DNA of 54,079 nt from a virus (lineage: Duplodnaviria > Caudoviricetes). A program made the position numbers and the translations under genes. The notes under the pieces are model-generated. The model ran no database searches. It saw nothing but the letters and a program-made list of their open reading frames with translations, and was not told the origin of the DNA. This document shows positions 23,587 to 26,894 of this stretch, one piece after another (the first letter of the stretch is position 1; every line of letters begins with the position of its first letter). The stretch is from IMG/VR virus record IMGVR_UViG_3300032254_000258, positions 1 through 54,079 of that record; one strand, 5' to 3'.

Positions 23587-23693
23587 CATTGGAAGGTTAG
23601 AAATCAGGAAGACCCCATTACGCTCATAGGTGACAAGCCTCGGCCATGTGGCTAACGTGGCGTTCAATTTTGAGCGAATTTTACAGGTGGCCT

Positions 23694-24194
23694 ATGGAAG
23701 AAATTGATTGGTCTGATCGAGCCTTTTACGACGATGGTGAGTGGATCACTTGGTCAGAAATTGACGAACAGCTTCGTTACAAAGAATGGGGGGCGAAGTA
23801 TCCCAACGCGATCCGTTCGATGATCCCGTACTTTGAAGATCTAATTTCATTAGCAGAAAGTTACCATTTTGAAACCGGTTTGCACCTGAATGTTTATGGG
23901 GACATCGGAGAATTGTTTGGCGCTATCACATATGGCATCAGGCTGAACAAGACATATGCGCAGGGTGCGGATGGTAGGCTGGGCGATGACCATGTCGAGA
24001 TCAAGACCATTACGCCTTTCAAGAACCGGGACGAAGTGCATGTGAAGCTTTCTGGAAACTGGTCCAAGCTGCTTGTAGTAAAAATAAATGCGGAATTTCA
24101 GGTGTCTGGGCGAATGATTGGTCGACGACAGCTTCCGAAAAGAAATGGGAAACTCTTGCGAGTCAAATGGCACGATTTATCTCCCGAGCAGTGA
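23694..24194 (+). CDS. Putative PD-(D/E)XK nuclease-fold protein (DUF6998-like); low-GC moron
   Basis: GDIGE....G.D.....VEIKT motif. Confidence 0.6.
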   Translation: MEEIDWSDRAFYDDGEWITWSEIDEQLRYKEWGAKYPNAIRSMIPYFEDLISLAESYHFETGLHLNVYGDIGELFGAITYGIRLNKTYAQGADGRLGDDHVEIKTITPFKNRDEVHVKLSGNWSKLLVVKINAEFQVSGRMIGRRQLPKRNGKLLRVKWHDLSPEQ

Positions 24195-24255: not shown

Positions 24256-24471
24256 TTACCTCACGCGGATCGCCTCGAAAACCCGCCGCAGCGTGAACGA
24301 TCTGGCTATACTCACCACTGTGAAGATCAAGCCAAGTTTCAGGTTCTGGGCCAGCGTCGTTTGCAAGCCGAACAGCGGAAACACCAGCATCTGGGTGACC
24401 ACGGCAGCGCCGTAACCCACCACGACATTGGCGATGGCTTCCACCAGAGACATGATGCGCGATTGTTTCAT
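24256..24471 (-). CDS. Small two-TM phage protein
   Basis: MKQSR.MSLVEAIANV.VGY...FT.VSIARS..LRR.FE; two hydrophobic helices. Confidence 0.7.
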   Translation of the reverse strand: MKQSRIMSLVEAIANVVVGYGAAVVTQMLVFPLFGLQTTLAQNLKLGLIFTVVSIARSFTLRRVFEAIRVR

Positions 24472-25031
24472 TGCACCGACTCGTCAGCGATCATCACTGA
24501 ACCGAGCCACAAGAATTCGGAACGCATGCGCTGCAACCAGGGGAACCACACCGTTGCCGCAAAGTCGAAGCCGGTCCACGCGACCGGCCAGCCCATCAGC
24601 GCCTCGACAAAGGCTGGGTTCAAGCTGCGGCGCTGATCGCAGATATTCTCGCCAGCCTGCGAGATCGTCCGGGCCTGGCGGGAATACACGGCAAAGTTTG
24701 CCAGTTGATCCATGTGATTGCGGGCCGGTGGTTTCTGTTTCACATGCTCGGGACTGTTGGTGCCCTTCCAGTCCCGCGCCAGTGGCGTCGGCCACATCCC
24801 CGCCACATGGGTCAGGTCGGCCGATCTTCGGGTGCCCCCGCTCGGCTTGCAGCCGTCGCTTGCCATCGGTGTCGGCCAGTCCCGCGCCATACGATCCAGA
24901 CCCTTTTCGTTCCTGCGCGCTCCGCCCCGCGTGCGGAAACTGTCGATCTGGGGTGTTGGCCACATCGCCGCCTTGGTCGCAAGGTTCATTCCGTGTTTTC
25001 CAGCCAATTGTGACGGCGTCGGTTTTGTTTG
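24468..25031 (-). pseudogene. 3' remnant of a dual-frame C5 DNA methyltransferase (motif X in one frame; WPTP repeats and motif IX-like in the other)
   Basis: Frame ending at 24484 has RLRLCGNGVVPLVAA; frame ending at 24468 has 3x WPTP and RRSLNPAFVEALMGWP. Confidence 0.7.
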
Positions 25032-25104
25032 CAACGCAACTGCATATTTTGTAGGTTCCACATATCTATCTAGTGGAAAATTATTAGTCTGAAGAGGTAA
25101 CGAA

Positions 25105-25470
25105 ATGATACTGTATAAAAAAATGATATTTGCATGGGCTTCGCTTCTCTTCTCAATTGTCGGCGTTGCAGCAAATGCTCAGTCACTATCATGTAGCACC
25201 GATAGTTTCGGGAATACTTATTGTAACGACGGCACGACTTACAGCACTGACTCCTTCGGGAATACGTATGACAATCAAGGGAACAGTTGGAGCACGGATA
25301 GCTTTGGCAATACTTACGGGAGCGACGGTACGACCTATAGCACTGACTCCTTCGGTAACACATACGATAATAGCGGAAACAGTTGGAGCACGGATAGCTT
25401 CGGCAATACTTACGGGAGCGACGGCAGCGTCTGCTCGCAGGATAGTTTTGGAAATATCTACTGCAACTGA
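25105..25470 (+). CDS. Putative secreted protein with six 16-aa S(T/Q)DSFGN(T/I)Y repeats
   Basis: Signal peptide ending ANA-Q; tandem repeats visible in protein and DNA; low GC. Confidence 0.75.
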   Translation: MILYKKMIFAWASLLFSIVGVAANAQSLSCSTDSFGNTYCNDGTTYSTDSFGNTYDNQGNSWSTDSFGNTYGSDGTTYSTDSFGNTYDNSGNSWSTDSFGNTYGSDGSVCSQDSFGNIYCN

Positions 25471-25506
25471 TTTCTGTTTTATTTCAGTTCCTCGTGTAGT
25501 GAAAAC

Positions 25507-25665
25507 GTAACTTTCCCGCCCGACGTAACACACAGTGCAATACCCGGGGCATGCGATGGTGAGGCCGAGGTCGATCCCGCCTGCTCCGGCGCAGAGCGAG
25601 AGGCCGAAGAGCGGGTCTGCTGTTCCGAAAGCGTTTCCGGAGGGATGTAAAGCCAACTCATTCAC
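25507..25665 (-). pseudogene. 5' remnant of the C5 DNA methyltransferase (motif I)
   Basis: LSLCAGAGGIDLG SAM-binding motif I, then reads into the AT-rich insert; no PC or ENV motifs follow. Confidence 0.7.
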
Positions 25666-25670
25666 GGGTC

Positions 25671-26894
25671 TCAGCGCGGGTATTCCGCTAGGTCGGCGAA
25701 GGACTGGTCGGTGCCGTCCAGCGTTGCTTGTTTACCAGTGAATTGCTGCCAGCGCTCCACCGCCACATCGACGTAAGCGGGATTAAGCTCGATCCCGAGG
25801 CAAACGCGGCCCGTGGTTTCCGCTGCGATCAGCGTGGTGCCGGACCCCATGAACGGCTCGTAAATCGCCTGACCGGGGCTGGAATTATTAAGGATCGGGC
25901 GGCGCATGCACTCGACCGGTTTTTGCGTGCCGTGCACCGTGTCCGCATCCTGATCCTTGTTTGCAATCTGCCACAGCGTGGTTTGCTTGCGATCCCCGGC
26001 CCAATGGCCCTTGCCGGTCTTTTTCACAGCATACCAGCAAGGTTCATGCTGCCAGTGGTAATCACCCCGGCTCAGCACCAGCCGGTCCTTGGCCCAGATG
26101 ATCTGTGAGCGGACATTGAAGCCTGCCGCCTCGAGACTTTCGGCCACGGTCGTTGCGTGCAATGCGCCGTGCCACACATAGGCCACGTCACCCGGGAACA
26201 AATCCCAGGCCTCGCGCCAATCCGCCCGGTCGTCATTCAGCACCTTGCCGGTGCGTTTGGTGGCTGATGCGCCGGATTGGTTGCGCCAGCTTGGGTCGTA
26301 TTCCACACCGTAAGGAGGATCGCTGACAAGCAGCAGTGGTTTAACACCATCGAGCACCCGCTCGACATCCGTGGCCACCGTCGCATCCCCGCAGAGCAGC
26401 CGGTGGTTGCCCAGCACCCAAAGATCGCCCGGTCGGCTGACTGGGTCCACGGGCGGCTCGGGAATGTCGTTTTCGCCTTCGGTGTCGGTTTCGTCATCGA
26501 GACCGGACAGCAGACTATTCAACTCCTCGCCGGTAAAACCGGTCAGTTCCAGATCGTAATCCGCGTCCAGCAGATCGCTCAATTCAAGGCCCAGCAGATC
26601 TTCCATCCAATCGGCATTTTCGGCCGAGCGGTTGTCCATGATCCGGAACGCCTGTGCCTGGGTCCCGGTCAGCCCCTTGGCGACATGCACCGGTGCGGAT
26701 TTCAGGCCCAGCTGCTGTGCGGCCGCAAGCCGGGTGTGACCGGCCAGAATAACCATGTTCTCGTCAACCACGATCGGCTGCCGCCAGCCGAATTCGGCAA
26801 TCGAGGCCGCGACCGTGGCGATGGCTTTCTCGTTCTGGCGCGGATTGCGCGCATAGGGAATGATCTGCCCGAGAGGCAGTTCGATCACGTCCAT
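25671..26894 (-). CDS. ParB-N domain plus N6A/N4C DNA methyltransferase
   Basis: PYARNPR, FGWRQPIVVD and GHTRL (ParB); DPPY, HGTQKPV and EPFMGSGTT (beta-class order). Confidence 0.92.
   Translation of the reverse strand: MDVIELPLGQIIPYARNPRQNEKAIATVAASIAEFGWRQPIVVDENMVILAGHTRLAAAQQLGLKSAPVHVAKGLTGTQAQAFRIMDNRSAENADWMEDLLGLELSDLLDADYDLELTGFTGEELNSLLSGLDDETDTEGENDIPEPPVDPVSRPGDLWVLGNHRLLCGDATVATDVERVLDGVKPLLLVSDPPYGVEYDPSWRNQSGASATKRTGKVLNDDRADWREAWDLFPGDVAYVWHGALHATTVAESLEAAGFNVRSQIIWAKDRLVLSRGDYHWQHEPCWYAVKKTGKGHWAGDRKQTTLWQIANKDQDADTVHGTQKPVECMRRPILNNSSPGQAIYEPFMGSGTTLIAAETTGRVCLGIELNPAYVDVAVERWQQFTGKQATLDGTDQSFADLAEYPR

Follow-up and report, generated by a model that had tools for sequence, protein, structure and literature searches.

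The subject of this analysis is a DNA methyltransferase gene on the minus strand of a 54,079-base provirus record (IMG/VR virus record IMGVR_UViG_3300032254_000258; the whole stretch is hereafter called the window), where it occupies positions 24468–25665. The copy in the window is broken (described below), and its intact relatives in other viruses and in cellular genomes probably encode a two-subunit C5 methyltransferase like M.EcoHK31I, with not only motif IX but also the recognition module placed in a second reading frame. An intact copy consists of 2 open reading frames (ORFs) of ~380–400 codons that overlap almost fully and start 4 nucleotides (nt) apart in the sequence RTGNATG. We designate the putative products of frame 1 and frame 2 (the +1 frame) alpha and beta, respectively. 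According to this reading, alpha would contain (i) the catalytic large domain with motifs I–VIII; (ii) a disordered linker of ~125 residues, which would be the shadow of the other frame; and (iii) a C-terminal motif X segment. Beta would contain an N-terminal passenger, which would be the shadow of motifs I–VIII, followed by W-P-T-P repeats and motif IX, that is to say, the small DNA-recognition domain. Alpha and beta would assemble into one enzyme.

A protein search with the 197-amino-acid (aa) frame-2 ORF left in the window revealed full-length proteins of 355–396 aa that are read wholly in frame 2 (MSWLYIP...WPTP...LNPAFVEALMGWP) and in which no Pfam domain was found. One of these full-length proteins was used to fetch 80 viral loci, which form the window-family set. 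The frame-2 ORF was located by a script in 77 of these loci; the disrupted locus L013 and the loci L020 and L076, whose 5′ ends are missing, were dropped. The start region reads [AG]TG-N-ATG in 77 of 77. The frame-1 translation is a full C5 methyltransferase in 69 distinct full-length genes, with the order motif I, VERE, GYPCQPFS, FLENV, KRxRLFILA, a stretch rich in D, E, R, and G, and WPPGP..GW..YLR.AP.LEP..RRGADGLAHRVDRLRLCGNGVVPLVAAHA. Frame 1 is 363–407 aa long in 67 of the 69 genes, and the adjoining frame-2 ORFs have 342–403 codons.

The same layout was found in a second sample, for which only the frame-1 catalytic domain served as the query; at least 599 stretches matched, and the best 80 were kept. 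All 73 distinct loci with enough sequence in this sample have an ATGNATG start and a frame 2 that is open for at least 263 codons, and both frames reach 360 codons in 68 of them. The exceptions are L102 and L146, in which both frames are shorter yet open, and L108, L135, and L163. Four viral sets, three of which were retrieved by frame-2 queries, contain 260 distinct complete methyltransferase ORFs; in 241 of them, a +1 ORF extends from motif IV up to a site that resembles motif IX. Seen from the other frame, all fetched sequence holds 269 distinct ORFs in which motif IX accompanies two or more xPTP repeats; for 268 of these, the −1 frame beneath is open over 100 codons or more. An earlier note on this DNA, made from the sequence of the window, had suggested that the gene might be overprinted along its whole length. 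The frames do overlap over nearly the whole length in the intact homologs, and interruption of the second frame by stops was not seen there: frame 2 stays open.

The conserved motifs are divided between the 2 frames. Frame 1 of the intact homolog L072 matches the C5 methyltransferase family PF00145 with an E-value of 1.2e-34, and the match covers model positions 4–169 of 324. In an alignment of 104 frame-1 sequences, P96, C97, Q98, E134, V136, R174, R176, G356, and N357 are invariant. Intact frame 1 therefore passes for a C5 methyltransferase with respect to motifs I, IV, VI, VIII, and X, and fails with respect to a variable region for recognition and to motif IX, which this chain does not have. 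Only frame 2 gives motif IX, whose residues L333, P335, M342, and P345 are invariant in 99 sequences of that frame. Between motifs VIII and IX, conservation is limited to the WPTP region of frame 2; this repeat region is the only candidate for the recognition module, and it lies in the second frame together with motif IX. The large length variation of frame 2 (292–504 codons in the Bacteroides-phage type, described below) fits the suggestion of the earlier note that the WPTP repeats may be modular specificity elements. A search of the beta profile, WPTP region included, against solved chains gave no match at E ≤ 1.

A relative from an Actinomycetota genome contains all of these elements in a single frame. 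This protein of 723 aa (L371:198–2366) has motifs I–VIII, six xPTP repeats, LNPDWVEWLMGWPVGWT, and ..RLKACGNGQVP, and its N-terminal part aligns to residues 8–179 of M.HhaI (E 2.6e-13). Comparison of L371 with L072 by tblastn revealed matches in frame 1 (query residues 13–175), frame 2 (618–634), and again frame 1 (661–700); comparison with the window remnant revealed matches in frame 2 (601–634) and frame 1 (661–700). L371 is colinear with these genes across the frames, and therefore both frames jointly spell a canonical methyltransferase. The single-frame layout of L371 is probably ancestral.

The distribution of nucleotide diversity, calculated for each column of the 69 window-family genes and sorted by codon position, follows the same division. 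Frame-1 position 3 is the most variable position in alignment nt 30–530 (motifs I–VIII). In nt 540–1190 (the WPTP region), frame-2 position 3 is the most variable and positions 1 and 2 are quiet, and in nt 1290–1400 (motif X), frame-1 position 3 is again the most variable. The surroundings of LNPxFVEALMGWP show low diversity at all 3 codon positions. The switch from frame 1 to frame 2 and back to frame 1 is repeated in the Bacteroides-phage type, that is, in two subfamilies in total. Thus, the genuine coding frame is frame 2 in the middle of the gene and frame 1 at either end. The two constraint switches coincide with the two crossings between the large and small domains in the chain of a monomeric C5 methyltransferase. 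In the N-terminal half of frame 2 and in the middle of frame 1, the amino acids change freely and the frames remain open. A comparison of codon positions among the head, overlap, and tail revealed no clear extra loss of synonymous diversity in the overlap with the frame-2 N-terminal half, and the idea of an extra amino-acid constraint on this half was dropped because codon-position diversity gives no clear signal of it.

Open frames may arise without selection in DNA rich in G+C, and the window family has a G+C content (GC) of 62–70%. Stops were therefore counted against synonymous shuffles, with the third frame as a control. In the N-terminal half, no stop interrupts frame 2 in any of the 68 loci (shuffle mean 1.45; probability of zero stops [P0] 0.19; third frame 1.34); in the middle, frame 1 is free of stops in 64 of 66 loci (shuffle mean 2.89; P0 0.04; third frame 5.14). 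The evidence for stop avoidance in the window family is thus moderate. The +1 frames of 204 control ORFs from the same loci contain 2.5 stops per 100 codons and are stop-free in 5 cases. The strong test is that of the low-GC relatives. A set of 80 loci related to the gene of Bacteroides phage BS-TP4 (49% GC) yielded 57 distinct loci with 46–50% GC, 53 of which were tested; frame 1 extends over 360–542 codons and frame 2 over the 292–504 codons given above, save in L211, L221, and L232, which are shorter or partial. In this Bacteroides-phage type, frame 2 has 0 stops in the N-terminal part in 53 of 53 loci (shuffle mean 2.54; P0 0.028; third frame 8.06), and frame 1 has 0 stops in the middle in 53 of 53 (shuffle mean 9.46; P0 0.0003; third frame 12.7). 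For five genes of cultured phages, the chance of a +1 ORF as long as the one present was 0.017, 0/2000, 0.018, 0.0005, and 0.001 by synonymous shuffles. The open frames are selected and are not an effect of G+C. Codon choice at stop-prone sites was rejected as evidence, as the zero counts are built in when genes are picked for open frames; information comes solely from the control frequencies, with 2059 purine-ending codons among 3057 Leu/Val codons before A.

Structure predictions support binding between alpha and beta. In the AlphaFold2 (AF2) model of alpha alone, based on a 104-row alignment, residues 15–186 and 355–375 are confident, and residues 187–312 have a predicted local distance difference test (pLDDT) score of ~31 and no secondary structure. 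In the AF2 model of beta alone, the only parts that are at all confident are the motif IX helix, the C-terminal helix, and two helices of the N-terminal half. The predicted complex of alpha with beta residues 178–382 reached an interaction prediction score from aligned errors (ipSAE) of 0.89, compared with 0.00 for the best of 3 controls. Of the pairs used for calibration, 58 of the 80 solved complexes and 2 of the 110 mismatched ones attained the ipSAE mark, and these counts apply only roughly to our run, which used custom alignments. At least 41% of the contacts were common between runs. The predicted contacts join beta 329–376 (motif IX and the tail helix) with alpha 28–38, 165–174, and 310–370.

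The start region, too, favours two chains over frameshifting. The second codon of frame 1 varies (CAT, AAT, GAT, or TAT), and the T that completes the frame-2 ATG is always kept. In 42 of 116 genes, GAGG precedes the frame-2 ATG by 5–6 nt and the frame-1 start by only 1–2 nt; of the remaining 74 genes, 73 have no Shine–Dalgarno-like motif and one has GGAG. According to a tally of the listed contexts, 62 of those 74 have the TGA of the upstream gene within GTGAC right before ATGNATG. The frame-2 start varies by lineage: among 90 loci, 30 have RTGNATG, 24 have another frame-1 start at ≤13 nt, and 36 have an internal or later frame-2 start. In the Firmicutes-type genes, it lies 15 codons before PCQ. 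Because the frame-2 start is not fixed, the sequence comparison suggests that the N-terminal part of beta is largely passenger. At neither of the two switches was a conserved slippery site, heptamer, stop context, or homopolymer found; the junction sequences vary, with no motif common to the subfamilies, and runs of 6 or more bases turned up 3 times in the 116 genes.

The layout extends well beyond the window family. It was found in the following viruses:

Synechococcus phage Yong-M2-251, cultured
Burkholderia phage phi1026b, cultured; start GTGAATG
Acidovorax phage Alfacinha1, cultured; start ATGTG
Rhodobacter phage RcMaeve, cultured
Komagataeibacter phage phiKX1, cultured
Bacteroides phage BS-TP4, cultured; 49% GC
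Podovirus MW202483, uncultured, also listed with this layout

In the phi1026b type, the overlaps extend over 295–538 codons (24 loci analysed of 28 fetched). In 66 distinct loci of the RcMaeve type, they extend over 173–466 codons, and the third frame is open for 3–158 codons. A scan of genomes, with one genome per species, yielded 80 loci, including loci from Geobacter, Spirochaetes, Acinetobacter, Akkermansia, Firmicutes, Planctomycetes, and Nanoarchaeota. When classes were tallied from a regular-expression table, 47 of these loci were two-switch, 8 one-switch, and 3 single-frame, 11 had no motif IX match, and 11 were unclear. In a one-switch gene, frame 1 contains motifs I–VIII and then stops, and frame 2 contains both IX and X. 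Full reading revealed clean two-switch genes in Acinetobacter (L364, 49% GC) and Nanoarchaeota (L413, 42% GC) and one-switch genes in Spirochaetes (L358 and L360, 46–47% GC; starts ATGAATG and TTGAATG).

In a Bacteroidia genome, a free-standing beta-like gene (L404 2314–3060; 249 codons, 41% GC) has no overlapping frame. It contains xPTP repeats and LNPDWVEWLMGYP and is located directly after a short dual-coded methylase gene. Judging from this sequence, it may encode a second recognition chain, and it fits with an action of beta in trans. Three further loci that had looked like split, non-overlapping pairs were rejected on reading: L383 turned out to be an ordinary gene of the two-switch kind, the frames of L418 change internally, and L386 carries both an insertion and a stop. 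This leaves L404 as the only locus with a free-standing beta-like gene. The insertion in L386 (Oscillospiraceae) is an extra domain of ~130 residues before motif IV, which is Cys/His-rich and HNH-like by eye, and the in-frame stop lies in GGFP*PCQ. In the viral locus L043, a MAMAMAMAMAMA run in frame 2, inside the WPTP region, corresponds to GDGDGDGDGD in frame 1; a hexanucleotide repeat has expanded here, and both frames tolerate it.

Frame-2 products already exist in databases, where they are unrecognised, and the frame chosen differs between records. They match phrog_1008 and phrog_31772 (“DNA methyltransferase”) and phrog_27243 (unknown). The annotated frame is frame 2 in Alfacinha1 (L084 1504–2637, “cytosine-specific methyltransferase”) and frame 1 in phi1026b and Yong-M2-251 (L082 and L083), and the matched feature in Synechococcus phage Ssp-JY39 is labelled “hypothetical protein.” An E. 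coli prophage copy (L437 1197–1958) has the double start GTGAATG and one short mutated stretch that puts a stop in both frames; the NCBI pipeline records it as a pseudogene (“DNA cytosine methyltransferase, internal stop”). Six apparent natural fusions of the frames (P0025, P0030, P0031, P0033, P0039, and P0041) were rejected. Their joins between frames 1 and 2 lie at differing places, some inside motifs V–VI, and these chimeric proteins are most likely indel errors or decayed copies; such indel errors go unnoticed because every frame is open.

The reading of the 2 frames as 2 subunits of one enzyme has to be weighed against several observations. We infer from frame conservation that both chains are made; frame conservation and the structure prediction together suggest that they bind; and alpha and beta together would methylate DNA. 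Points that count against this reading are as follows. (i) The frame-2 queries favour loci with frame 2 intact. (ii) Some genes deviate: the middle of frame 1 is interrupted by one stop in each of L056 and L070 (2 of 69 genes), frame 2 of L108 stops at codon 263, and 19 of the 260 genes fall short of the motif IX-like site as identified by regular expression. (iii) The ratio of diversity at position 3 to the mean of positions 1–2 is ~3.1 in the overlap versus 2.6–2.7 outside. As frame-1 synonymous diversity is not lowered, the frame-2 N-terminal half shows maintenance of an ORF and not amino-acid constraint. (iv) Beta alone is modelled with a mean pLDDT of 49.6 and with the WPTP region below 50, the partner pLDDT in the complex is 56–58, the calibration of the complex is rough, and its pass may reflect likeness to solved monomeric methyltransferases. 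(v) It would be wasteful and out of the ordinary for beta to carry a passenger of 125–185 residues and for alpha to carry a junk linker of a similar kind. A bolder joint reading holds that a large and ancient clade of C5 methyltransferase genes of phages and prophages, in bacteria and archaea, is fully dual-coded; that the start pair 4 nt apart feeds two frames of ~390 codons and sets the ratio of catalytic to recognition chains; and that the overprinted N-terminal half of beta has gained a separate function, such as binding DNA unspecifically or serving as a dock for the catalytic chain. We put this forward tentatively and consider it rather unlikely as a whole.

The second frame could also be an unselected by-product of high G+C and of gene callers that choose long ORFs. 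In many loci with 62–70% GC, the third frame is likewise open over nt 4–709, and the within-gene shuffles keep frame 2 open with a P of ~0.19 per locus. This explanation is already contradicted by the low-GC stop tests, the codon-position diversity, and the bacterial and archaeal examples, and its probability is minimal. The layout persists at 42–50% GC, including in Nanoarchaeota L413 and Acinetobacter L364; all 53 Bacteroides-phage loci retain both open frames where the third frame has 8–13 stops; codon-position diversity places the constraint on frame 2 in the middle of the gene; and a stop-free +1 frame exists in only 5 of the 204 control ORFs. If the frames are selected, they could still be joined into a single polypeptide by two programmed ribosomal frameshifts, the first (+1) following motif VIII and the second (−1) following motif IX, with the long ORFs not translated as such; the outcome would again be a canonical monomeric enzyme. 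The order of the constrained segments (frames 1, 2, and 1) equals the motif order of single-frame L371, and frame 1 of the one-switch genes ends soon after motif VIII (in L358, 8 codons after RIWIFAY), like +1 sites that use a frame-0 stop. We consider this improbable: no conserved heptamer, stop context, or homopolymer exists at the junctions; frame 2 upstream of the switch, open for 125–185 codons and with a conserved ATG, would be left unexplained, as would the open middle of frame 1 (53 of 53 loci versus 9.46 stops expected); and frameshifting is inapplicable to the free-standing beta-like gene of L404. Finally, frame 1 alone might be a working methyltransferase, with frame 2 serving another role, such as that of a regulator or a DNA-binding accessory protein. 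All catalytic motifs and motif X are in frame 1, and frame 2 has neither a solved-structure match for its profile nor a Pfam family for its proteins. There is little likelihood of this either, given that frame 1 has no motif IX or recognition domain and that its middle is unconstrained and predicted to be disordered, that L371 holds WPTP repeats and motif IX within one methyltransferase chain, and that four motif IX residues are invariant in frame 2. The two-subunit enzyme thus remains our preferred reading for the intact genes.

The window itself contains only parts of such a gene:

25513–25665, minus strand: 5′ stub of the dual-frame gene, corresponding to gene nt −4 to 149, with GTG 25665, ATG 25661, and motif I at ~25611–25561
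24468–25061, minus strand: 3′ remnant in frame 2, 197 aa, with three WPTP repeats, motif IX RRSLNPAFVEALMGWPVAWT, and a tail
24484–24963, minus strand: 3′ remnant in frame 1, 159 aa, with a junk-like linker followed by FPPGPDD..GADGLAGRVDRLRLCGNGVVPLVAAHAF
25033–25512, strand not applicable: foreign low-GC segment of 480 nt, defined by blastn breakpoints and GC
25105–25470, plus strand: 121-aa ORF inside the insert, with 37 unnamed homologs at E ≤ 1e-3 (best 64% identity)
24256–24471, minus strand: downstream DUF7220 gene, 71 aa (PF23858, E 1.6e-33)
25671–26894, minus strand: upstream gene with a ParB-N domain (PF02195, E 1.8e-6) fused to an N6/N4 DNA methylase domain (PF01555, E 1.1e-20)

GTG 25665 opens frame 1, which reads MNELALHPSGNAFGTADPLFGLSLCAGAGGIDLGL (MNELAL...LFGLSLCAGAGGIDLGL, with motif I). 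ATG 25661, 4 nt downstream, opens frame 2 (+1) with MSWLYIPPE. In the frame-2 remnant, the WPTP repeats are located at 24962–24951, 24878–24867, and 24794–24783, and motif IX at 24632–24573; homology to the intact gene begins at 25032, and the stop shares ATGA with the ATG of the downstream gene. The frame-1 remnant has motif X (RLRLCGNGVVP) at 24573–24541, at the end of the ORF, and no motif IX. The pair of starts, the overlapping 3′ frames, the three WPTP repeats, motifs IX and X, and the ATGA coupling are all where the earlier note had placed them; that the gene is interrupted had not been stated outright in the note.

The closest intact homologs, L072 and L002, have 85–89% nt identity to the window flanks and align in two blastn matches: window 25900–25513 corresponds to gene nt −238 to 149, and window 25032–24268 corresponds to gene nt 588–1352. 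Gene nt 150–587 (438 nt, encoding motifs II–VIII) are swapped for the 480 nt at window 25033–25512. As a result, the window copy fails the test for a C5 methyltransferase (PF00145): the catalytic PCQ (motif IV), ENV (motif VI), and RxR (motif VIII) are deleted, and only motifs I, IX, and X are left. The window copy is a dead remnant because motifs II–VIII have been replaced; both frames are destroyed by the 480-nt insertion-deletion, and no active enzyme is possible. Residual function in a reduced form, for example, of the 197-aa frame-2 ORF alone, is extremely unlikely. Both 3′ frames are stop-free across 765 nt, which speaks for it, but motifs II–VIII with the catalytic PCQ and ENV are deleted, the four methyltransferase-fragment ORFs of the window match no Pfam family at E ≤ 0.1, and a search of the 54-kb record for a second copy of the gene gave one match only, that is, no second copy.

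The insert has 34–51% GC in 100-nt windows, compared with 58–71% in the flanks. Its 121-aa ORF has no Pfam family; the sequence looks like a signal peptide followed by approximately five STDSFGNTY-type repeats, and the ORF resembles a small gene for a secreted protein whose arrival disabled the methylase gene. By itself, the window is an ordinary case: the insertion of a small gene has inactivated a methylase gene of a prophage. The stop of the upstream gene lies 5 nt before the frame-1 GTG; this gene is an N6/N4 DNA methylase, and therefore the prophage once carried two tandem methylase genes. A second low-GC island (23646–24194, plus strand, 41–54% GC) is located just downstream, and its 182-aa ORF has a sub-threshold match to DUF6998 (25.7 bits; cut-off 27).

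Should both frames be translated, half of the enzyme would be missing from the annotation of thousands of methyltransferase genes in phages and prophages, and prediction of their targets would have to read the second frame. The same-strand overlaps of 300–500 codons at 42–50% GC would then be a strong natural test for gene finders and models of overprinting, and the family would supply many more natural split methyltransferases as tools. If the joint reading of a dual-coded clade were also true, these genes would rank with the longest known overlaps between same-strand genes in prokaryotic viruses and would reveal a systematic blind spot of annotation. No published description of this layout was found in the searched literature, in which subscription journals are thinly covered.

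The characterized enzymes are compared here by layout and motifs, as given in published accounts. M.EcoHK31I from E. coli has a beta chain with motif IX that is coded within the alpha gene in a different frame, its alpha chain contains motifs I–VIII plus X together with the recognition domain (PMC2836561), and its activity requires both chains (PMC2836561, PMC3404938). M.AquI is split in the variable region into a large chain with motifs I–VIII and a small chain with motifs IX–X (PMC3404938). These two enzymes are described as exceptions among characterized C5 enzymes (PMC3404938), and natural split methyltransferases serve as platforms for targeted methylation (PMC2836561).

The monomeric enzymes M.HhaI and M.HaeIII (PF00145) share with the present family the motif order I–VIII, variable region, IX, and X, which is kept across the frames; by contrast, the variable region and motif IX of the present family lie in another frame. 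L371 has the same catalytic motifs, xPTP repeats, LNPDWVEWLMGWPVGWT, and ..RLKACGNGQVP, and differs in that all of them are in one frame, as in 3 of the 80 genome loci. The one-switch relatives (8 of the 80 genome loci, for example, L358 and L360) share the motif division of M.AquI. Their second ORF, however, covers the first one completely, and the two have a common start region (ATGAATG in L358); the window family further differs from M.AquI in having motif X back in frame 1.

M.EcoHK31I is the parallel drawn in the earlier note, and the comparison stands in part. As described for M.EcoHK31I, the intact homologs have a second chain in another frame within the gene of the first chain; the second chain has motif IX, and the first has motifs I–VIII and X. 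The parallel ends at the recognition-like region, which is in the second frame here, and at the window copy, which is broken. The second frame of M.EcoHK31I is short, and its recognition domain is in the large chain, whereas the second frame of the present family covers nearly the whole gene (~380 codons), starts 4 nt away, and contains the WPTP repeats together with motif IX. The principle is the same as that of M.EcoHK31I, and what differs is the overlap across the whole gene and the recognition-like region in the second frame.

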